Shown: positions 3,297 through 30,001 of the stretch, in pieces | How positions within the stretch are numbered: the stretch's first letter is position 1 | Layout: every line of letters starts with the position of its first letter | Source: Eledone cirrhosa | Lineage: Eukaryota | DNA length: 64,000 nucleotides | Direction: 5' to 3' | Assembly (NCBI GenBank): GCA_964016885.1 | Contig: OZ024743.1 | Coordinates: 112,654,001-112,718,000, forward strand | Notes under the pieces: generated by a model | Told to the model about the DNA's origin: nothing | Database searches by the model: none | Seen by the model: the letters and a program-made list of their open reading frames with translations, nothing else | Program-made: the position numbers and the translations under genes

Positions 3297-3341
<45 letters not shown>

Positions 3342-3503
3342 TGGTATACTTTGGGAGGGTCATGTTGCCAATAAGAAACACACGCACCAGTTGCTTTCAC
3401 TTCAATTTATTATATATTTATAAATTTATAAATTTACAAATCTACAAACTTATAAATTTCTGGTTGGTTGGTTGGTTCCACAACCAGATAGTTGTTTATA
3501 TAT

Positions 3504-3548
3504 AGTCATAGTCCTTTCGTCACACACTCTGTGACCTCTTCAGTGACT
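3504..3548 (-). ncRNA. Same hammerhead in the inverted pLTR arm
   Basis: Reverse complement reads AGTCACTGAAGAGGTCACAGAGTGTGTGACGAAAGGACTATGACT with perfect stem II GTCACA/TGTGAC. Confidence 0.75.
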
Positions 3549-4027
3549 GGGGATTCCTTTCTTTGTTTCTGTGCCTTTCCTTTCTTCTGTCCTACGCCAT
3601 TTTGTTTCTGTGTGTGTGTTGTGTGCTCAGTTTGCGCATGCGCCACATCCGGGTGTCTGTGTGTGTTTGTGTTCATTTATCTATTTGTTTATTTATTTAT
3701 TTATTTATTGTTGGTTGGTTGTTTGTTCTATGTGTGTGTGTATTTTCATTTTGTCCTTAATTGTAAGTTGTGATGTTGCTGTTCCACTCATATTTTCTAT
3801 TTAATTTTGGTTGTAATTCTTTTATGCTTACTGCCTCTGTAATTTGCCTAAACATTGCATCTTTTCTGTGTGTGGATTCTATTTTTATTTCTATGTCCTC
3901 TAATTTACCCCTGTGTTCTATCTTAGCATGTTGGTAGAGCACAGATGATTCTTTATTATCTTGAAGGTCTCGCCAGTTCGTTCCCCTATACTACGAGCTG
4001 TCTCACCTATGTACACTATATTTTTGT

Positions 4028-4960
4028 AACAACCAAAGACAAATCCTCCATTCCCATTATGCCAAACCCATGAATTCCAAACATCTGATCCACCGAAACT
4101 CGGCCATTTCGGACCATACCAAAATCAACATACTGATTACGGATTTGGTACGGGTGATGAGAAATGTGTCCCGCATGTGCAACCCCGAAGAACTAGAGAG
4201 ACACATACAACACTTCATCCACCGTATGCAATTCTCTGGCTACAATCAGAGAGATAGAATCAGAGTGTATAGAGGAGCCAGAACCAAATGGGAAAAAATG
4301 GTAAATAATGACATAAATGGGACCTGCCCCTTGTATAGGAGCAAATTTTGGAATAGAATAGAAAGAACTAGGAACAAGGCTAATAGAATAAACTCATGGT
4401 ATGATAGCAATAAATACCAGAGTGTAATGTTCATCAATACAACCCCTAGAGGCGAACTAGCCTACAAATTTAGAAGGGCCCTAAATAAACATAAACTCAA
4501 TATTAAGATAGTAGAAAGACCAGGTACCTCCGTAAAAACACTTATTAGCAAGACATACCCCTTCCAAAGACCCTCATGTATAGATAAGAAATGTATAACC
4601 TGTAAAATAAGCCCCCATATTAACTGTAAAACTAGAAATGTAGTGTATAGCATGAGATGTACTGAAGGACAATGTAGAAACAAAACTATAGTGTACATAG
4701 GTGAGACAGATCGGAGTATAGGGGAACGTATAAATGAACACTGGCGAGACCTTCAAGATAATAAAGAATCATCTGTGCTCTACCAACATGCTAAGATAGA
4801 ACACAGGGGTAAATTAGAGAACATAGAAATAAAAATAGAATCCATACACAGAAAAGATGCAATGTTTAGGCAAATTACAGAGGCAGTAAGCATAAAAGAA
4901 TTACAACCAAAATTAAATAGAAAATATGAGTGGAACAGCAACATCACAACTTACAATTAA
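4028..4960 (+). CDS. PLE polyprotein C-terminal part (RT thumb plus GIY-YIG endonuclease), 5'-truncated, uninterrupted
   Basis: HYAKPM, MFINTTPRGELA, KIVERPG, CIDKKCITC, NVVYSMRC...VYIGETDRSIGERINEH, RQITEA, LNRKYEWN. Confidence 0.92.
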   Translation, partial: NNQRQILHSHYAKPMNSKHLIHRNSAISDHTKINILITDLVRVMRNVSRMCNPEELERHIQHFIHRMQFSGYNQRDRIRVYRGARTKWEKMVNNDINGTCPLYRSKFWNRIERTRNKANRINSWYDSNKYQSVMFINTTPRGELAYKFRRALNKHKLNIKIVERPGTSVKTLISKTYPFQRPSCIDKKCITCKISPHINCKTRNVVYSMRCTEGQCRNKTIVYIGETDRSIGERINEHWRDLQDNKESSVLYQHAKIEHRGKLENIEIKIESIHRKDAMFRQITEAVSIKELQPKLNRKYEWNSNITTYN

Positions 4961-5168
4961 GGACAAACTGAAAACACACACACACATAGAACAAACAACC
5001 AACCAACAATAAATAAATAAATAAATAAACAAATAGATAAATGAACACAAACACACACAGACACCCGGATGTGGCGCATGCGCAACCTGAGCACACAACA
5101 CACACACAGAAACAAAATGGCGTAGGACAGAAGAAAGGAAAAGCACAGAAACAAAGAGAGGAATCCCC

Positions 5169-5213
5169 AGTCACTGAAGAGGTCACAGAGTGTGTGGCGA
5201 AAGGACTATGACT
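5169..5213 (+). ncRNA. Type I minimal hammerhead ribozyme in the Nematis-like pLTR
   Basis: AGTCA-CTGAAGA-G-GTCACA..TGTGGC-GAAA-GGAC-TA-TGACT: stem I AGTCA/TGACT, canonical core, very short stem III. Confidence 0.75.
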
Positions 5214-5431
5214 ATATATAAACAACTATCTGGTTGTGGAACCAACCAACCAACCAGAAATTTATAAGTTTGTAGATTTGTAAATTTATAAATTTATAAA
5301 TATATAATAAATTGAGGTGAAAGCAACTGGTGCGTGTGTTTCTTATTGGCAACATGACCCTCCCAAAGTATAACAATATCGTTTTCAACACACGATTTCA
5401 GATAAAGAATCTTGCTAAACAAATTCAGAAA

Positions 5432-19432: not shown

Positions 19433-19463
<31 letters not shown>

Positions 19464-19542
19464 AAGGACGTAAAATAAGAAATTATTTTTTTAAAAAAAT
19501 TAAAAAAAAAAAAAAAAAAATTTTTTTCTTACTTAAATTTTC

Positions 19543-19624
19543 ACTCCAACTAATTAGTTTCTGCAATGGGATAAAGACAGTTACGTAATCCAACTGTTGA
19601 GAATTCATTGCGTCATCAGGAAGT
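19543..19624 (-). ncRNA. Hammerhead, inverted unit 1
   Basis: Reverse complement of 20762-20843. Confidence 0.82.
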
Positions 19625-20111
19625 CTATTCTCAGTTAAGTCTCCAGGCAATGCGCGGACACTGGCGGCTCATATAAAAATAATAATAATTCGGTAGATCG
19701 AACAGCTTGCGAGGACTGGATTCTATGTACCGAAATTCTCACTGCTTCAAGTCAAATGGCCGATTCTAAAGAATCAATCACGTGACACAGAGGCTAGTTA
19801 GAAGGAATGGGATGGTAAGATGACTGACGCCTACTAACACCCCAAAAAAAATTTTTTTTAGAAGTGGTTTTGACAAGTTTGCTCGACAAATCAGTGATTT
19901 GGAGATAAATATAGATAATTTAATATATCAACTAACATAAGCGCACAGATGCACGCCCATGCCAGCAAATACACAGGTTATGTCATAGTACCTAGGTGGT
20001 TCAATGCAGGAGAATGCAGAACAATAATATAAAGGACGTAAAATAAGAAAATATTTTTTTAAAAAAATTAAAAAAAAAAAAAAAAAAAATTTTTTTCTTA
20101 CTTAAATTTTC

Positions 20112-20193
20112 ACTCCAACTAATTAGTTTCTGCAATGGGATAAAGACAGTTACGTAATCCAACTGTTGAGAATTCATTGCGTCATCAGGAAGT
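20112..20193 (-). ncRNA. Hammerhead, inverted unit 2
   Basis: Reverse complement of 20762-20843. Confidence 0.82.
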
Positions 20194-20761
20194 CTATTCT
20201 CAGTTAAGTCTCCAGGCAATGCGCGGACACTGGCGGCTCATATAAAAATAATAATAATTCGGTAGATCGAACAGCTTGCGATAAGTAAGAAAAAAATTTT
20301 TTTTTTTTTTTTTTTTAATTTTTTTAAAAAAATATTTTCTTATTTTACGTCCTTTATATTATTGTTCTGCATTCTCCTGCATTGAACCACCTAGGTACTA
20401 TGACATAACCTGTGTATTTGCTGGCATGGGCGTGCATCTGTGCGCTTATGTTAGTTGATATATTAAATTATCTATATTTATCTCCAAATCACTGATTTGT
20501 CGAGCAAACTTGTCAAAACCACTTCTAAAAAAAATTTTTTTTGGGGTGTTAGTAGGCGTCAGTCATCTTACCATCCCATTCCTTCTAACTAGCCTCTGTG
20601 TCACGTGATTGATTCTTTAGAATCGGCCATTTGACTTGAAGCAGTGAGAATTTCGGTACATAGAATCCAGTCCTCGCAAGCTGTTCGATCTACCGAATTA
20701 TTATTATTTTTATATGAGCCGCCAGTGTCCGCGCATTGCCTGGAGACTTAACTGAGAATAG

Positions 20762-20843
20762 ACTTCCTGATGACGCAATGAATTCTCAACAGTTGGATTA
20801 CGTAACTGTCTTTATCCCATTGCAGAAACTAATTAGTTGGAGT
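20762..20843 (+). ncRNA. Type I hammerhead ribozyme with extended stem II
   Basis: Stem I ACTTC/GGAGT; CTGATGA; stem II GCAATG/CATTGC with distal ACAGTT/AACTGT hairpin; GAAA; palindromic CTAATTAG in stem III; GUU triplet at 20836-20838. Confidence 0.82.
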
Positions 20844-21329
20844 GAAAATTTAAGTAAGAAAAAAATTTTTTTTTTTTTTTTTTTAATTTTTTTAAAAAAA
20901 TATTTTCTTATTTTACGTCCTTTATATTATTGTTCTGCATTCTCCTGCATTGAACCACCTAGGTACTATGACATAACCTGTGTATTTGCTGGCATGGGCG
21001 TGCATCTGTGCGCTTATGTTAGTTGATATATTAAATTATCTATATTTATCTCCAAATCACTGATTTGTCGAGCAAACTTGTCAAAACCACTTCTAAAAAA
21101 AATTTTTTTTGGGGTGTTAGTAGGCGTCAGTCATCTTACCATCCCATTCCTTCTAACTAGCCTCTGTGTCACGTGATTGATTCTTTAGAATCGGCCATTT
21201 GACTTGAAGCAGTGAGAATTTCGGTACATAGAATCCAGTCCTCGCAAGCTGTTCGATCTACCGAATTATTATTATTTTTATATGAGCCGCCAGTGTCCGC
21301 GCATTGCCTGGAGACTTAACTGAGAATAG

Positions 21330-21411
21330 ACTTCCTGATGACGCAATGAATTCTCAACAGTTGGATTACGTAACTGTCTTTATCCCATTGCAGAAACTAA
21401 TTAGTTGGAGT
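21330..21411 (+). ncRNA. Hammerhead, next tandem unit
   Basis: Identical to 20762-20843. Confidence 0.82.
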
Positions 21412-21611
21412 GAAAATTTAAGTAAGAAAAAAATTTTTTTTTTTTTTTTAATTTTTTTAAAAAAATATTTTCTTATTTTACGTCCTTTATATTATTGTTC
21501 TGCATTCTCCTGCATTGAACCACCTAGGTACTATGACATAACCTGTGTATTTGCTGGCATGGGCGTGCATCTGTGCGCTTATGTTAGTTGATATATTAAA
21601 TTATCTCTATA

Positions 21612-21665
<54 letters not shown>

Positions 21666-21943
21666 CATATATATACATATATATACAGTTGAGCAGTTGA
21701 AGTATAAGGACGTGTTTTTACTTCTCTCCCCGAGTAAGCAGCAAGTCACACAGCCACAAAACAAAACCACAAAACAAAACCAAACAAACAAAAATTGACC
21801 GGTTAATACATTTACATACATCTATATTATTATATATTTGAAACCACGTGTTTTCCAACTTGTGAGTACATTTTCCTTTAACTACAAATTATTATTATAT
21901 ACTTTCGTCTTTTCATTAATTTAATTAATTTCAAATAACCAGA

Positions 21944-21976
<33 letters not shown>

Positions 21977-22095
21977 CTCATATTTATATATATACTCTTC
22001 TCACTCACACACAAGAAAAACAAAAAACAAAAATAAATAAAAAAAATATATATATATTGAAATACTTAACTAAAATACACACACTCAAAACTAGA

Positions 22096-23250
22096 ATGGC
22101 TAACCAGCAAAAATCCAAACAGAACTGGTCTGATAATGAAATCGACATTCTAATAAACACATGGCATTGCCTTACCCAAACAGAAGACATAGATGCTTCA
22201 TCTCTGAACGACATTGCTAAACGTACAGTTCAATTTTTGAAAACTCGATCTGAACAACAGATTCAAGATGAATTAAAGCAAATCGAAATTGCTTTTAAAT
22301 TAATCAATAAACATTTGGATAAACTACGGTGTGTTTTTTCTTCGAATGCTGTCCAGCAGCAGCAACAACAACAACAGCAGCTACAACGGCAACAACAACA
22401 ACAGCTACAACAACAACATCAACAACAGCAACAACAACAACAACGACAACAACAGTGTGAACCACTCCTTGATTCATCAACAATGGCCGATCTACTAAAT
22501 GAAACTATTGACCTCCCAGTAGCCTCTGTCTCACAGCATGAAACGCCACATCCTTTCTCTGGCCCAGCAGTCCAATCATCACCACTGCCAACATCTTCTC
22601 TGCCTACTACTACTACTACTACTACAACATTTTTGTCTACTGCTATGTCAAGGAATTTACCTTCTAATACCAGAACAAGAACTCTCCCTCCCACAGTCCA
22701 CAAAGGTCGTCAAATCCTACTCAAACCATCATCTACACCTCTCACAACACACACACCCACATACCCACCCACTCGAAACCCCATCATTTGCCGCTACTCT
22801 CTACGCTATAGAATATGTACGGATAGTGGCTGCAAATTCACCCATTTACCTAGGACAAAACGATCTATCCCCACAAACAGCCACCACCATAATACATACT
22901 CTAATTTAACACCAACACAACTACCAATAACTCAAACAAGGAATCCACAAATCTGCCGCTTTTCCCTGCGAGACAGATTGTGTTTAGACCGGGATTGTCC
23001 CTTTACCCATCTCCCGGGGAACCGTCGGACAAATGAAAATAAAATTAAAAATAAAAGCAAAAACAAAAACCATAACCTACATAAAAATAACCACTACCAC
23101 AGTCACCAACAGTCTTCTAAACAGGAAACTTCTTCCTCTTTTTTAGCCATAATGAATCTGGCAAAAGAACTGGAAAAAAACATTCGAGCTATCACCCAGC
23201 ACCACCCTCCACTATCACCCCACTGCACAAACTCCCATTGCTGCCATTAA
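22096..23250 (+). CDS. LINE ORF1: SANT/Myb-like N-terminus, polyQ, two C-x8-C-x4-C-x3-H zinc fingers
   Basis: ATG at 22096; WSDNEIDILINTW...RSEQQIQDELK; CRYSLRYRICTDSGCKFTH (22789-22845) and CRFSLRDRLCLDRDCPFTH (22954-23010). Confidence 0.8.
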   Translation: MANQQKSKQNWSDNEIDILINTWHCLTQTEDIDASSLNDIAKRTVQFLKTRSEQQIQDELKQIEIAFKLINKHLDKLRCVFSSNAVQQQQQQQQQLQRQQQQQLQQQHQQQQQQQQRQQQCEPLLDSSTMADLLNETIDLPVASVSQHETPHPFSGPAVQSSPLPTSSLPTTTTTTTTFLSTAMSRNLPSNTRTRTLPPTVHKGRQILLKPSSTPLTTHTPTYPPTRNPIICRYSLRYRICTDSGCKFTHLPRTKRSIPTNSHHHNTYSNLTPTQLPITQTRNPQICRFSLRDRLCLDRDCPFTHLPGNRRTNENKIKNKSKNKNHNLHKNNHYHSHQQSSKQETSSSFLAIMNLAKELEKNIRAITQHHPPLSPHCTNSHCCH

Positions 23251-24480
23251 CAAACAAACAAATTAACAACACACCAAAACAATTAAAACCATCCACTCTC
23301 GCCTCTACATTTTTGCTTAACGCCCAAGGCATCAGCCCTTCCACCAATACTCAAAAATGGAAGATCAAATTCCTGGAGGACTGGATTGATGTCCATCCAA
23401 ACCACATCCCCTTCTTCGTCCTCACTGAAACCCATCTCAGTAACCTCCACTTGGAAGCCGAGGTGAAAGTGAAAAATTTCAAAGCCATCCGTGCTGATCG
23501 CGCTGGCAGAAGAAAGGGCGGAACTGCCATTTATGTCCATAATTCTTTCTCAACAGAGGCTATGAACATATTCACTAATGGATACTGTGAAGCAGTCACT
23601 CTATTCAGTCAAACCAACAACCTATTAGTAGTTGGGCTCTATAGGCCACCCCAAACGCCTGTACCATGCTTCAAGGAATGCCTCAACAGCATAAAGTGTT
23701 TCATCCAAGAGTGTCACCCTGACAACATCTTAATGATGGGGGACTTCAACCTCCCCGGAGTTGACTGGTCCACAAACAGCCTGCCACCAGGTTCTTCTGC
23801 CTCAACCTCTGACAGGGAAGCAGTGGAATCGTTTCTTGACTTCATGGATGATTTTTTCCTATCCCAACTGGTGCTCGAACCAACGAGGTGCCACAAAAAC
23901 GTCCTAGACTTAATTTTCAGCAATCACACTGACAATATCCACAATATTGCAGTGAAGAAAACTCTACTCTCTGATCATGACATGGTTCTCTGTGATCTGA
24001 GATTCCGTCCAATATACAAACCCAATGTCATCTCTCCTGTCCATCCGTTTGACGCTATGGATTTCCACAATGCAAACTGGGAAGCGATCAGTCATGATCT
24101 TGCACATGTCGACTGGTCCTTCACGCACACTCATACACCCACTAACATCAAAAAGTACTGGCAGACATTTGTGGACACTGTTACAAACATATGTGCTAAA
24201 CACACCCCATTAAGAACTATAAACAAATCTAAGAGCAGAATCCCTAGAAATAGAAAAACGCTCATCAGAAAAATTAAGAGAACGAACAAAAAAATCAACA
24301 AGCTGAAATACTGTCAGCAGCAACACATCAACTTGACTGCCATTTCATCACTAGAGATTAAAAAACATAACCTCCAAAACAACATAATGTCCCTCATCAA
24401 CAATCAGAGAAGAGCTGAAGAGGCCTGGGCCATTGAGAAGATCAAACTCAATCCCAAAGTGTTCTTTTCATTTGCAAAAA
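23121..24480 (+). CDS. LINE ORF2 N-terminal part: APE endonuclease (frame open from 23121)
   Basis: LLNAQG, LTETHL, DR...KGG, LYRPP, MGDFNLP, PTR..NVLDLIF, SDHDMV. Confidence 0.92.
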
Positions 24481-26256
24481 AAACACAAAATCACTGGCTC
24501 TACTGTTGGCCCTCTAATTGATGAAAATGGCACTCTTCAAGACAATGCTAAAACCATGGGTGAGATACTGCAGAAACAATACTGCTCTGTTTTCAGCAAT
24601 CCTGATATGGCCGATCTGGGCTGTATCGGCGATGTTACTCCCCATTACACCTTATCGGACATAACGTTTGGCGCCCCTGATGTCTTAGCGGCAATAAAGG
24701 AAATCAAGCATAATTCAGCAGTAGGTCCCGATAGGTTCCCTGCTTGTGTCTTGAAGGCGTCTCAACACCAACTTGCATCTCCTCTTGCCAATCTGTGGCG
24801 GAACTCACTGGATGCTGGATATGTGCCAGAAAACCTTCTATCCCAGTCTGTTGTCCCAGTTTTCAAAAAGGGAAACAAATCCCTTGCCGTGAATTACCGT
24901 CCAATCTCACTCACCTCTCATATCATTAAGGTATTTGAGAGAGTGGTGAGATCGCGAATGACCCACTTCCTTGAGAGTAACAATATGCTGAACTCCAACC
25001 AGCATGGATTCCGTAATGGAAGGGATTGCCTGACGCAGCTACTGCATCACTTTGATGACATTTTGAGAGCCTTGGGAGAGGGTTCCAACACTGATGTTAT
25101 CTACCTTGATTTCAGCAAGGCCTTTGACAGGGTTGATCATAACATTCTAGTGAGAAAGCTGTCCAATATTGGTGTCACTGGAAAGCTGCTGCAGTGGATC
25201 AAGAGCTTCCTGTCAAACAGAACCCAACATGTTGTAGTTGAAGGAGTCAAATCCAGCCCAGCCAAAGTCAGTAGTGGGGTCCCACAAGGCACTGTGTTGG
25301 GCCCACTTCTCTTCATCATCTATATTAATGACATCACTGACATCATCAAACACAGCAACATTAAAATTTTCGCTGATGATTCCAAGCTCCAAAAGGTCAT
25401 CAATGGCGTGGATGACCGGATAAGCCTTCAGTCAGACCTACTGGCTGTTACCCAATGGGCGGAAAAGAACAACATGTTACTGAACGAAGACAAATTCGAA
25501 CTGATCCACTTTGGAAAAGAGGATGCTCTGAAACTCCCGTACTCCCTTCCCTCCGGGGAAACTCTCGTGGCATCTAACAACATCAGAGACTTGGGAGTAA
25601 CCGTGGACAGCAACATAAGCTGGACCACGCATATAAGCAGCAAAGTTGACATGGCCCGCAGAATGTGTTCCTGGATCCTCAGAACCTTCCAGTCGAGAGA
25701 TTCCCACACCATTATCCTTCTCTTCTCTACTTTTGCCCGACCACACCTTGAATACTGTTGTCCACTGTGGTCTCCCCACACGAAACAAAGTATCATGAAA
25801 CTTGAAGCTCCTCAAAGGGCAATCACGAAAAAGATAGATGGCATGTCAGACCTTGACTACTGGGGTCGATTAGAAAAGCTGAAACTTTACTCACTCCAAC
25901 GTCGCCGTGAGCGTTATATTATCTGCATGATGTGGAAAATGTTCCATCATCACTGCCCAAATGATGTTGGCATCGCCTTCAAGATACACCCAAGGCTTGG
26001 GCCCCGTGCTATCCGTCCCATTCAAAAATCTAAATCGCAACACATAATAACAATACGGCACAATTATTTCACCTCAATCGGCCCTGCTCTCTTCAACATC
26101 ACACCAGGACACGTCAAAACAGAAACTGACCACACAAAATTCAAGAAGTCTTTGGACAAATTCCTCCAAGTAATCCCGGACAAACCACCCACACCCGGAT
26201 ATGTCTCCGCAAACAGTAATTCTCTTCTCGAATGGGCCATGGTGCCCAAATCCTGA
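24481..26256 (+). CDS. LINE ORF2 C-terminal part: reverse transcriptase; joined to the APE part if one A is removed from the A8 run at 24476-24483
   Basis: NYRPISLTS, QHGFR, YLDFSKAFD, GVPQGTVLGPLLFIIYIND, FADDSKL, RDLGV, LEYCCPLWSP, LYSLQRRRERY. Confidence 0.95.
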   Translation, partial: KHKITGSTVGPLIDENGTLQDNAKTMGEILQKQYCSVFSNPDMADLGCIGDVTPHYTLSDITFGAPDVLAAIKEIKHNSAVGPDRFPACVLKASQHQLASPLANLWRNSLDAGYVPENLLSQSVVPVFKKGNKSLAVNYRPISLTSHIIKVFERVVRSRMTHFLESNNMLNSNQHGFRNGRDCLTQLLHHFDDILRALGEGSNTDVIYLDFSKAFDRVDHNILVRKLSNIGVTGKLLQWIKSFLSNRTQHVVVEGVKSSPAKVSSGVPQGTVLGPLLFIIYINDITDIIKHSNIKIFADDSKLQKVINGVDDRISLQSDLLAVTQWAEKNNMLLNEDKFELIHFGKEDALKLPYSLPSGETLVASNNIRDLGVTVDSNISWTTHISSKVDMARRMCSWILRTFQSRDSHTIILLFSTFARPHLEYCCPLWSPHTKQSIMKLEAPQRAITKKIDGMSDLDYWGRLEKLKLYSLQRRRERYIICMMWKMFHHHCPNDVGIAFKIHPRLGPRAIRPIQKSKSQHIITIRHNYFTSIGPALFNITPGHVKTETDHTKFKKSLDKFLQVIPDKPPTPGYVSANSNSLLEWAMVPKS

Positions 26257-26331
26257 ATTGAAAGACTTCGCCAGGTGGTGCTATTAAGTTAGACATGGCC
26301 TGGGCCAATACTGGCCAAAACATTTCAAAGT

Positions 26332-26412
<81 letters not shown>

Positions 26413-26934
26413 GGAACCAGTAAGACCCCGACAGCTGAGCTCAAGCCGTTTCGACGGCTAATTCTGGACTAAATGAAAATTTATCCTGGTATTTAAATAG
26501 CCGATCTTCTCAAGGGGTAATTCCATATATGGTCAAAGTGATTGTCAAAAATCAGTAGTAATTCTGTGGTTGCAAATTAGTAGGGGAGATGGTGGCTAAA
26601 CCAGCCAGTAGGAGAAAGAGGGGAGGGGGTGGAGTAGCCCCAATCAAGCGTTTGTAGTGCCAGCTACAGCTGGGCATGAGGTCAAAGAAGATACAAGGGA
26701 GGGGGAGGGGGAGGAAGTCGGAACGGTAGGTGGAACAATGGGGGTAGAAATATATAGGAAAGAGAGTGAAGAAAAGCAAATAAGTGTAAAGAAAAACAAA
26801 TGAGTGTAAAGAAAAAAGTAAAGTAAATTAAATTCTACGACCTAGGTCTCTAGCTATTGTTAGTCTGGAATAAATAAATAAATAAAGAAAGAAAGAAGTA
26901 AAGAAAGAAATAAAGAAATAACGAAATAAGTAAT

Positions 26935-28701
26935 ATTATTAGCAGCCTAAACTCCACCTATAAAAAGGCCAACCACTCTTGCATCGAGGACATAAATCGA
27001 GATGGACAACAAATCACCTCCAGCCTCGGGGTCGCCGACCGCACGGAACCTCTAGACCCACGGACACCATACTTCACACTGAAGGACCATAAATCCGATT
27101 TTGACCGTAAACCCTCTATCAGGCTTATTAACCCAACGAAGTCCGACATAGGGAGAATCAGCAAAAAAATCCTAGACCGCGTGATACCAAAAGTCAAGCA
27201 ACACACCCGACTTAGCCTATGGATCAACACCCAGGAAGTAATCTCCTGGTTCAGCAATATGGAGGATAAACGAGAAACTAAATTCATACAGTTCGACATA
27301 GAGAGCTACTATGCTTCAATCACCTTACCGCTACTTACTGCCGCCTTGGACTTCGCCAAAACACTTGTGCCCATCACCGACCAGGAAAGAAAAATCATCC
27401 TCCACGCCAGGAAGACAGTCTTACTCTTTGACGACTCTAAATGGATAAAAAGAGCTCCCGACTCACCCTTCGACGTCAGCATGGGCGCCACGGATTCGGC
27501 GGAGGTCACAGATCTTATAGGATTATTCCTAATAGCCAAACTCACTGATATGTTTCCTGCATTCGGTGGTGGATTGTACCGTGATGATGGGCTCCTTACC
27601 CTTAAAGGGTACAACCCCAGTAGTACAGATCGGGACCGGAAACAATTAACCAGATTCTTCCGCGACTGGGGATTTAAAATAACCATACAAACGTCCCTGA
27701 CCAGAGTAAACTTCCTGGACGTGACCCTCGACCTCGAAAACGACCTGTACTACCCATACAGGAAACCTAATGACAATCTGCACTACATCCACCGCCGATC
27801 AAACCATCCTAGGAACATCACAAACAACCTGGTCAAAAACATCTCCCTCCGCATATCCCGTTTGTCAGCTAATGAGCGGATATTCGATGAACATGCGCCT
27901 TATTACAACCAGGCCCTCAAGCGGAGTGGTTTCCGGGAGGAAATATCCTACTGTCCAGCTCCCATTAGCGGAACCAGCAGGAGACACCGCCGCTCACGCA
28001 ATGTAACATGGTTCAATCCTCCCCACAACGCAGAGGTGACAACTCCCATCGGGAAACTATTCTTTAGGCTCATTGAAAAACACTTCCCATTACAACACCG
28101 CTACCACAACATAATTAACAAAAATACCATCAAACTCTCTTACAGCACTACACCAAACTTCGCACAAAACATCGTCTCCTCTAACAACAAAAAACTCAAC
28201 CCCGATGGCAGAAATAACCTAAATAGCAGTGGAGAACCGACCAGGAGGTGTAACTGCCCGGATAGATCTATCTGCCCACTCGACAATAGATGCAGAGACC
28301 GTAATGTGATCTACCAGTGCAACGTGAGGACGGATACCTCCAACAAAGCCTATATAGGACTTACCGCATGTGACTTCAAGACCCGGCTATACCAACATAG
28401 ACATACCTTCCGAAACCCGGCCCGGCGTCACGCTACTACACTCTCGGGCCACATATGGGACCTCAAGGACAACAACATCACCTATGATCTCACTTGGAGA
28501 TTACTGTCCAGAGCCAATTCTTACACGGGAGGACGCCGTCCGTGCAATTTATGCTCGGAGGAAACTTTACAAATGCTGTTTTCGACGGACCAACACCTAA
28601 ACAAGAAAGATGAACTGGTTACTACATGTAAACATAGATTGCGTAGGACTTACCTCGCCCTCAAACCCCATAATGACCCGGGGGGTAGACTAGGGCTATA
28701 A
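26935..28701 (+). CDS. PLE RT plus C-terminal GIY-YIG endonuclease, uninterrupted, 5'-truncated
   Basis: FTLKDHK..RLINPTKS, QFDIESYY, DVSMGATD, GLYRDDGL, VNFLDV, WFNPP, CNC..CPL..C, VIYQC...AYIGLT, CNLCSEE, LNKKDELVTTCKH. Clade assignment is from remembered motifs and is less certain than the PLE call. Confidence 0.93.
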   Translation: MISSLNSTYKKANHSCIEDINRDGQQITSSLGVADRTEPLDPRTPYFTLKDHKSDFDRKPSIRLINPTKSDIGRISKKILDRVIPKVKQHTRLSLWINTQEVISWFSNMEDKRETKFIQFDIESYYASITLPLLTAALDFAKTLVPITDQERKIILHARKTVLLFDDSKWIKRAPDSPFDVSMGATDSAEVTDLIGLFLIAKLTDMFPAFGGGLYRDDGLLTLKGYNPSSTDRDRKQLTRFFRDWGFKITIQTSLTRVNFLDVTLDLENDLYYPYRKPNDNLHYIHRRSNHPRNITNNLVKNISLRISRLSANERIFDEHAPYYNQALKRSGFREEISYCPAPISGTSRRHRRSRNVTWFNPPHNAEVTTPIGKLFFRLIEKHFPLQHRYHNIINKNTIKLSYSTTPNFAQNIVSSNNKKLNPDGRNNLNSSGEPTRRCNCPDRSICPLDNRCRDRNVIYQCNVRTDTSNKAYIGLTACDFKTRLYQHRHTFRNPARRHATTLSGHIWDLKDNNITYDLTWRLLSRANSYTGGRRPCNLCSEETLQMLFSTDQHLNKKDELVTTCKHRLRRTYLALKPHNDPGGRLGL

Positions 28702-29816
28702 CACCCCACTTGCTGACTTTGCAATGGGTACCCCCTGCTTGCCAAGGGAGACGTAAGATCTTCTTTGTATTCTTTTATCGCTTCCTTTATTTCCTTCCTT
28801 CCCCCCTCTCTCCTTAGTCCTTCTACCCCAGCTCTTCTCCTTTGTCGACGTCTTTTCTCGCCCACCCGAGGCTGCCCTTTGGCCCCTTGTAGCCTTAGTA
28901 CCCCTACCCCCTCCCCTAGTCTAGGATAGATTTGGCGGACTCCGCCCTTTATAGCAGTTGGTTTAGACCCCGGATACTTGTCCCCTTTTTCCGACCGCTC
29001 CCACTATTCTCTGTGCCCTCTATATTTCTTAGTGGCACTTATGCCTTATTTTTTCGTTTCAGTATTTCTTTCTTCGCTTTTCTTTTGGGCGGGCTGGATT
29101 CTGAATTTATTCTTCCGTATTCTACCTTTACTTCGTACGAACTTTCATGTAGCTTGTTTTAGATCTTTTAGAGTTAGCATTAGTATATATTTTTCTCGGG
29201 ACTCAGAATTATTATCTCGTATTAGTTCACTTTGCTGCACTGGGTGGTGGCTGGAATTGTACCCGGGATGGAAACCTTTATTGTCTATTTCGTGGTAGTC
29301 TCTTTAGTATTTTGGCCCCTTTTGTTGACCCGTCACCGTATCATTTACGTACTTATACCTCTTAAAAGGGTCCTCGCCTAATCCGTCCCACCTAGTTCTT
29401 TTACTTATTTCGTTATTTCTTTATTTCTTTCTTTACTTCTTTCTTTCTTTATTTATTTATTTATTCCAGACTAACAATAGCTAGAGACCTAGGTCGTAGA
29501 ATTTAATTTACTTTACTTTTTTCTTTACACTCATTTGTTTTTCTTTACACTTATTTGCTTTTCTTCACTCTCTTTCCTATATATTTCTACCCCCCATTGT
29601 TCTACCTACCGTTCCGACTTCCTCCCCCTCCCCCTCCCTTGTATCTTCTTTGACCTCATGCCCAGCTGTAGCTGGCACTACAAACGCTTGATTGGGGCTA
29701 CTCCACCCCCTCCCCTCTTTCTCCTACTGGCTGGTTTAGCCACCATCTCCCCTACTAATTTGCAACCACAGAATTACTACTGATTTTTGACAATCACTTT
29801 GACCATATATGGAATT

Positions 29817-29910
29817 ACCCCTTGAGAAGATCGGCTATTTAAATACCAGGATAAATTTTCATTTAGTCCAGAATTAGCCGTCGAAACGGCTTGAGCTCAG
29901 CTGTCGGGGT
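29817..29910 (+). ncRNA. Type I hammerhead with variant U3-A8 core
   Basis: Stem I ACCCC/GGGGT; core TTGAGAA; stem II GA(T)CGGCTA/TAGCCGTC with inner GGATAAAT/ATTTAGTCC hairpin; GAAA; stem III ACGGC/GCTGT around palindromic TGAGCTCA; GUC at 29903-29905. A mirror copy lies in the inverted arm. Confidence 0.8.
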
Positions 29911-30001
29911 CTTACTGGTTCCTATTATCCACTCTACTACCTCAAGTATTGAGTACTTTGGTGCGTTATGGTCCACCTGGTTCCTTACCACATTTCCTTC
30001 G

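Follow-up and report, generated by a model that had tools for sequence, protein, structure and literature searches.

A phased slippery heptamer at the ORF1/ORF2 junction of a CR1-group LINE: a candidate -1 frameshift site

Introduction

The way in which LINEs get their second ORF translated has long been an open question. The experimental answers are few (L1, SART1, Zorro3), and none in the literature we examined involves frameshifting. The question is raised by a LINE within the window analysed here, a stretch of 64,000 nucleotides. The ORF2 frame of this element opens inside ORF1 and has no AUG before its first APE motifs. The original prediction was that -1 ribosomal frameshifting at two slippery heptamers in the overlap produces an ORF1-ORF2 fusion protein. 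We studied this junction in the window copy and in its DNA and protein relatives, and weighed frameshifting against four other explanations.

A two-ORF LINE between (TA)n arrays

The window contains a full-length-looking CR1-group LINE of ~4.65 kb (21686..26334, + strand, as are all its features below), located between two (TA)n arrays (21608-21685 and 26335-26409). Neighbouring elements are also (TA)n-flanked, and the flanks of the LINE may reflect either preferential insertion into TA microsatellites or a TA tail. Just upstream, 19459-21614 consists of ~568-nt units in direct and inverted orientation, 96-100% identical, between (TA)n arrays (with similar arms at 3338-5379), and corresponds to a foldback or MITE-like array. 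Downstream, 26407-29928 encodes an ORF of 595 aa (26914-28701) with RT-like and GIY-YIG-like motifs recognised by eye, enclosed by ~540-nt inverted repeats that are 98-100% identical. This stretch has no match in Pfam, PDB or Rfam and looks like a young Penelope-like element. We found no second copy of the LINE within the 64-kb window, nor any close relative at the DNA level in the open sequence collections.

The element belongs to the two-ORF CR1-group LINEs: its ORF2 encodes APE and, downstream, RT. Its 5' UTR (21686..22095) contains zero ATG and has splice-donor-like sites at 21734 and 21862. ORF1 (22096..23250) encodes 384 aa from the ATG at 22096, within an open frame spanning 21925-23250. 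ORF2 occupies two frames. The first (23121..24521) starts with a Met-less extension of 66 codons, followed by the APE domain (PF14529, 1e-13; PF03372, 7e-8), and the second (24388..26256) encodes the reverse transcriptase (PF00078, 2e-31) and the C-terminal region. The Pfam search of the element revealed no protease domain. The two frames are separated by a copy-specific +1 frame break at an A8 run (24476-24483), caused by a mutation or a sequencing error, since the ORF2 of relatives is continuous across this region (full-length proteins, intact ORFs). The window copy as assembled could thus not make a full-length RT, and it does carry homopolymer indels. In a tree of 52 rows, which carried no clade names, the window RT was placed in a clade of its own (100/100) with its protein matches and two of the loci described below, L001 and L003. 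It is 38-45% identical to the RT of the other junction-bearing elements.

ORF1 has an unusual layout, fitting none of the described types I-IV (RRM+CCHC, Tnp22, PHD, esterase): it has CCCH fingers and no match in Pfam. It comprises a Myb/SANT-like N-terminus (a weak lead), a poly-Q tract, two CCCH-type fingers, a K/N/H-rich linker, the residues S-F-L and an amphipathic helix predicted from the sequence pattern. Searches of the Atlas provided zf-CCCH and Myb clusters only as leads, all with scores <0.9. The C-terminus is similar to that of the ORF1 of L021 (E 5e-5) and can be aligned with those of L021, L045 and L003. A word-index search found no ORF1 relatives, and a further one returned a single protein, identical to part of L021. 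The main text of PMC4120745 does not use the term CCCH. ORF1s of this type are present in two separate RT clades, one with the window element and L003 and the other with L021 and L045, which suggests that ORF1 has been exchanged.

The ORF1/ORF2 junction of the window copy

The junction coordinates of the original prediction were all borne out. The ORF2 frame, which is -1 relative to ORF1, begins at 23121 and shares 130 nt with it (23121..23250), up to the ORF1 stop at 23250. The first ATG in the ORF2 frame, at 23562, indeed lies downstream of the APE motifs LLNAQG and LTETHL. Both heptamers are correctly phased. U_UUU_UUA (23139..23145), the likely shift site, is read as Ser-Phe-Leu in ORF1 and Phe-Phe-Ser in ORF2. 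A_AAA_AAC (23175..23181) is probably incidental, given codon usage. They start 18 and 54 nt, respectively, after the opening of the ORF2 frame. HIV-1 shifts at U_UUU_UUA, and both A_AAA_AAC and U_UUA_AAC rank among the heptamers with the strongest tendency to shift (PMC5009743, PMC6547452).

Considered by itself, the window copy has heptamers that chance could explain. When the overlap was shuffled by dinucleotides (n=20,000), at least one phased heptamer appeared in 24.7% of the cases and at least two in 3.6%, and synonymous recodings contained at least one in 65%. Given the encoded peptide, the probability of the heptamer is 0.035 at the first site and 0.35 at the second. We therefore rejected A_AAA_AAC as a special signal: its Glu-Lys-Asn codons yield the heptamer about one-third of the time. 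This heptamer has no counterpart in L021 and L045, whose ORF1 ends can be aligned with that of the window element.

Junctions of related LINEs

We scanned contigs of GTDB representative genomes with an RT alignment, because the APE alignment was too variable, and obtained 371 stretches, of which we took the best 80 (L001-L080). All 371 encode relatives of an animal-type LINE RT and many fill whole contigs. We infer that L001-L080 are eukaryotic LINE contigs in bacterial or archaeal bins. The RT-based scan favoured distant CR1-group elements, and the clade of the window element is represented by just two loci, L001 (which lacks the junction) and L003. Frames reaching the start of APE numbered 43, window included. 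These best 80 of the 371 stretches provided 12 distinct -1 overlaps including the window, six same-frame junctions with a single stop, seven +1 overlaps plus L008, and nine long single frames; the remaining rows were duplicates, disrupted or unresolved. Before counting junctions we dropped L017 (nearly identical to L016), L014 and L025 (in which other DNA replaces the junction) and L008, which has T TTA AAC TAG, yet has its ORF2 in the +1 frame as assembled.

Six of the 11 other -1 overlaps among these best 80 of 371 stretches carry a heptamer that is strict and phased, where 2.1 would be expected (p = 1.4e-3) if the ORF1 protein is fixed, its codons are redrawn according to the codon usage of the element and ORF2 remains open. 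U_UUU_UUA is found in L010, L021, L073 and L077, U_UUA_AAC immediately upstream of the stop in L016, and A_AAA_AAC in L003. The strict heptamer is absent from L045 (U_UUU_UUG), the second element of L079 (A_UUU_UUG), L019, L020 and L022. The last three lack any slippery run, and all have an AUG at codon 6-7 of ORF2. Seven -1 junctions have no AUG before APE: five of them carry a strict heptamer and two a near variant (U_UUU_UUG, A_UUU_UUG). Dinucleotide shuffles of the first 10 junctions gave 1.3 expected against six seen (p = 2.5e-4), and the other two phases contained zero heptamers in any of these 10. The heptamers start 9-27 nt after the opening of the ORF2 frame, at overlap lengths from 28 to 217 nt, a regularity noticed post hoc.

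These loci are not independent of each other (L073, L077 and L079; L021 and L045). The only other junction from the RT clade of the window element, L003, lacks U_UUU_UUA and instead combines A_AAA_AAC with an in-frame AUG. The junction elements share RT identities of 34-55% and fall into several clades, whose ORF1s are of the CCCH type, the esterase type or others. Judged by these sequence comparisons, the feature is real and the first heptamer is beyond chance once relatives are included.

The choice of codons is informative. In the overlaps, Phe-Leu is coded T TTT TTA in five of eight cases. Leaving out the window, these are four of seven, compared with 7 of 182 in the bodies of ORF2 (p = 7e-5; 9e-4 when collapsed to four lineages). 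This bias bears on an alternative that we regard as unlikely: ribosomes would terminate at 23250 and restart without an AUG at a near-cognate codon of the ORF2 frame, making a separate ORF2p, and the heptamer would be a by-product of the conserved Phe-Leu. Suitable codons are found near the ORF1 stop (UUG at 23238, CUG at 23241, AUU at 23262), and AUG-independent reinitiation has been proposed for mammalian L1, whose ORF2 tolerates the loss of its AUG (PMC1965478, PMC5009743). Many related LINEs have +1 or same-frame junctions with neither AUG nor heptamer, so that some other route must exist, and a restart is also favoured by the lack of a 3' stimulator at the heptamers (see below). Yet it leaves unexplained the T TTT TTA bias, the presence of heptamers in a single phase, and an ORF2 that stays open back to just upstream of them. 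The window junction also lacks a stop-start of the UAAUG type used by SART1, as there is no ORF2-frame ATG before 23562 (PMC2699510).

The distribution of T6A among junctions bears on two further explanations. T6A occurs within 330 nt upstream of APE in six of the 43 APE-bearing frames, always in the same phase. It occurs in none of the 13 +1 or same-frame junctions, and once, incidentally, in the single-frame L080. If the T-run followed by AG were a 3' splice acceptor, ORF2 could be translated from an RNA lacking most of ORF1. The window site is indeed a pyrimidine tract ending in TAG, a G follows all five U_UUU_UUA junctions, and the 5' UTR has its two donor-like sites. But an acceptor needs no -1 phase, which leaves the 0 of 13 unaccounted for, and the slippery runs of L045 and L003 are not followed by AG. 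The donor GT[AG]AG is absent from ORF1, and splicing from the 5' UTR donors would make an ORF1-frame AUG, at 23152, the first of the RNA, because the 5' UTR has no ATG. We regard splicing as quite improbable.

Slippage could alternatively take place at the RNA level, if the RNA polymerase or the element's own RT slipped on T6 and gave a minority of in-frame templates. The homopolymer run is conserved, and PMC6547452 cites a paper on RT slippage at the HIV shift sequence. However, the runs are just six T long, the U_UUA_AAC of L016 is not a long homopolymer, and such slippage needs no codon phase, yet all sites are in a single phase. This makes RNA-level slippage very doubtful.

The ORF1 frame beyond the heptamer was compared with that of relatives. 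The last CCCH finger, the linker and the Phe-Leu helix of the window ORF1 align with the ORF1 ends of L021 and L045. Since the segment past the site, Phe-Leu plus helix, is alike in these elements, the ORF1 frame really continues beyond the heptamer.

Other junction types were also observed in the best 80 stretches. In six loci a single stop precedes an in-frame ORF2 (L002:2652-2654, L007:617-619, L013:1701-1703, L015:16-18, L027:353-355 and L038:946-948). The upstream ORF is visible in five of them, most have no AUG before APE, and in two the stop is UGA followed by CAA. In the related L002, L015 and L038 the flanking codons are kept and the stop varies between TAA and TAG. These six loci are candidates for stop-codon readthrough or non-AUG reinitiation. 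ORF2 is in the +1 frame, with overlaps of 47-212 nt, in L018, L030, L031, L036, L039, L061 and L074; some of these are AUG-less before APE, and several of the overlaps are rich in C- or G-runs. NPGP, a 2A-like motif, precedes APE in the single-frame L028, L035, L052, L054, L059, L064, L065 and L080, and in most of them is followed by a PHD-like finger; 2A-like peptides are reported for non-LTR elements.

N-terminal extensions of protein homologs

An exhaustive protein search with the APE domain gave 7,887 hits. Plasmid and phage collections contained no match to APE. We analysed the best 150, together with four from another search, and located the start of APE in 145 of these 154. Extensions of at least 60 aa upstream of APE were found in 19 of the 145. 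In seven of the 19, which represent the wider family of the window element, the extension contains FF followed by R, S or I, located 48-95 aa upstream of the first APE motif. Read in the -1 frame, T TTT TTA gives FF[RSIKNTM], and shuffles tested for this pattern expect 0.5-0.7 such extensions, with 0 of 5000 reaching seven. The motif is missing from the other 12 long extensions. For all seven proteins with the motif the predicted start precedes it, and they may therefore be initiated in the ORF2 frame.

The same proteins bear on whether the two ORFs were once one. In this case the ancestor would have had a single fused ORF and the window copy would have lost a homopolymer base, by mutation or sequencing error, in the direction opposite to the break at 24476-24483. 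This copy does have a proven private frame break, single-ORF subgroups of CR1/L2 exist (PMC4120745), and ORF1-like sequence is in frame with APE in two of the 145 located homologs (among the best 150 of 7,887, plus four): P0112 has a CCCH finger and P0093 an ORF1-like helix. However, P0112 is the only one of these 145 with a CCCH finger in its extension, independent assemblies show this -1 arrangement and this heptamer again, and the ORF1 frame past the site matches the ORF1 ends of relatives. We thus regard a private indel at the junction as highly improbable.

Search for a 3' stimulator

The GCCA/TGGC hairpin described by the original prediction after the first site exists and is weak (-2.7 kcal/mol, zero spacer after the heptamer). 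We rejected it as a stimulator for these two reasons. The pseudoknot prediction that had been proposed was run, and no H-type pseudoknot outdid its shuffles (best 3 of 40, window 13 of 40). Folding z-scores 3' of both window sites ranged from -1.7 to +0.6, the eight related sites that we folded showed a notable hairpin in L010 only (z ~ -2), and Rfam had no match at the junction. A stimulatory basic nascent peptide was also considered and rejected as not general: the upstream 40 residues contain 7-10 K/R in the CCCH-type elements, against 0-4 in the others.

Compared with a canonical -1 signal, the window junction has the AUG-less -1 overlap and the phased X_XXY_YYZ heptamer, and shows nucleotide conservation beyond protein constraint for the first site only, in distant relatives; it lacks the stem-loop or pseudoknot 5-9 nt downstream. 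Given the lack of this stimulator, the junction would work like the class of slippery site plus stimulator and is not counted as a member of it.

A slippery motif in vertebrate CR1 consensus sequences

We searched the motif of L016, TTTAAACTAG, in the first 400 letters of each row of a table of vertebrate CR1-group consensus sequences (PMC13343379 supplement). There were 12 matches, of which 11 were placed by eye at the end of an esterase-type ORF1 and one in a 5' UTR. The rows matched at the ORF1 end come from crocodilian, shark, ray, chimaera, bowfin, frog, coelacanth and others. Eleven control motifs with a single change had 0-3 matches each, and none of the 15 matches examined, out of 17, was at an ORF1 end. 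The version of the motif with TAA had eight matches, and one of the two examined was at an ORF1 end. This motif match at the ORF1 end of vertebrate CR1 is a lead to a candidate slippery site. A G-rich stretch follows U_UUA_AAC-stop in the invertebrate-type loci L016 (4825-4850) and L008 (4808-4835) and in most of the vertebrate CR1 rows examined. It has no local fold and is a possible stimulator of this site.

Discussion

The evidence from sequence leads us to regard low-level -1 frameshifting at U_UUU_UUA (23139-23145) as the likely explanation of this junction, with a minor ORF1-ORF2 fusion made beside abundant ORF1 protein. The frameshift fusion of the original prediction is thus partly supported: for its first heptamer, which recurs in phase in distant relatives, and not for the second, which codon usage accounts for. 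Most ribosomes would read Phe-Leu, pass through the C-terminal helix and terminate at 23250. A small fraction would shift after residue 350 of ORF1, when the tRNA-Phe and tRNA-Leu re-pair one base back, or by slipping at a slowly decoded UUA. The shifted ribosomes would continue through the linker into APE and RT, making a protein ORF1(1-350)-ORF2 that, by arithmetic, would have ~1,390 aa in an unbroken copy. The lack of an evident 3' hairpin or pseudoknot implies that the efficiency of the shift would be low. LINEs are thought to need an excess of ORF1p over ORF2p, which a low efficiency would suit. The HIV-1 heptamer shifts by two routes, one of which is driven by scarce Leu-tRNA for UUA (PMC6547452). 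By analogy, this route might operate where no structure is evident.

The process may extend well beyond this element. We give roughly even chances to the view that -1 frameshifting without a classical 3' structure is a widespread and overlooked route to ORF2p across CR1-group LINEs, in which the active enzyme is an ORF1-ORF2 fusion. This would include the lineages with a CCCH-type ORF1 (U_UUU_UUA) and canonical CR1 (U_UUA_AAC-stop), which dominates the genomes of birds, reptiles and sharks. If this is true, the ORF2 of many CR1-group elements is mis-annotated, having been started at an internal Met, and apparent frameshift 'errors' in consensus sequences are functional. ORF1 domains would be carried covalently on the RT, engineered CR1-group elements would need their native junction, and the natural cases of -1 frameshifting that lack a 3' structure would increase in number. 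With its 7 nt, a conserved phased shift site is a target directly open to synonymous mutation.

We found no report of a slippery site or of -1 frameshifting in CR1-group LINEs in a mainly open-access literature; the early CR1 papers and Repbase Reports may mention it. The term frameshift is absent from the main text of PMC4120745, PMC11203168, PMC13343379 and PMC10294476, and in the accessible text of PMC4700185, PMC11835228 and PMC7175516 it is used for LTR elements and retroviruses only. For mammalian LINEs, PMC5009743 favours non-AUG initiation, and Zorro3 requires its AUG (PMC1965478).

Among systems known for recoding, HIV-1 gag-pol has the identical heptamer followed by G, and a structural protein encoded upstream of an AUG-less polymerase in the -1 frame (PMC6547452). 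It differs from the window element, a LINE with APE and RT, by its stable 3' stem-loop, of which we found no equivalent here. Since no protease domain was detected, the fusion of the LINE would not be self-cleaved, unlike that of HIV-1. Recoding has also been proposed for the Paramecium non-LTR groups 1-3 and for Drosophila HeT-A, but as a +1 shift or readthrough in the former and as a frameshift inside a gag-only element in the latter, whereas the window element would shift by -1 at ORF1/ORF2 (PMC5405496, PMC5009743). SART1, with its documented translational coupling at UAAUG (PMC2699510), and mammalian L1 also have a bicistronic LINE RNA and a low ORF2 output. These elements make a separate ORF2p after termination of ORF1, whereas the window junction has an overlap of 130 nt with neither stop-start nor AUG.

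Canonical CR1 with an esterase-type ORF1, from vertebrates and invertebrates, is a further close system. The window RT is 45% identical to that of L016, and L016 and L017 have the phased U_UUA_AAC at the end of ORF1. In canonical CR1 the heptamer directly adjoins the ORF1 stop, with the G-rich stretch after it, whereas in the window element it lies 35 codons before the stop, ORF1 is CCCH-type and the RT belongs to a separate clade (100/100). Precedents for the shift itself are Dictyostelium TRE5-A and TRE3-A, which have two ORFs with APE-RT and are both stated to require a -1 frameshift for ORF2 (PMC5911963). They are amoebozoan and targeted to tRNA genes, unlike the window LINE, and the likeness follows the description in that review. 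Within the literature covered, what is new here is the phased slippery site at the junction of a CR1-group LINE, -1 frameshifting as such having already been stated for these TRE elements (PMC5911963).
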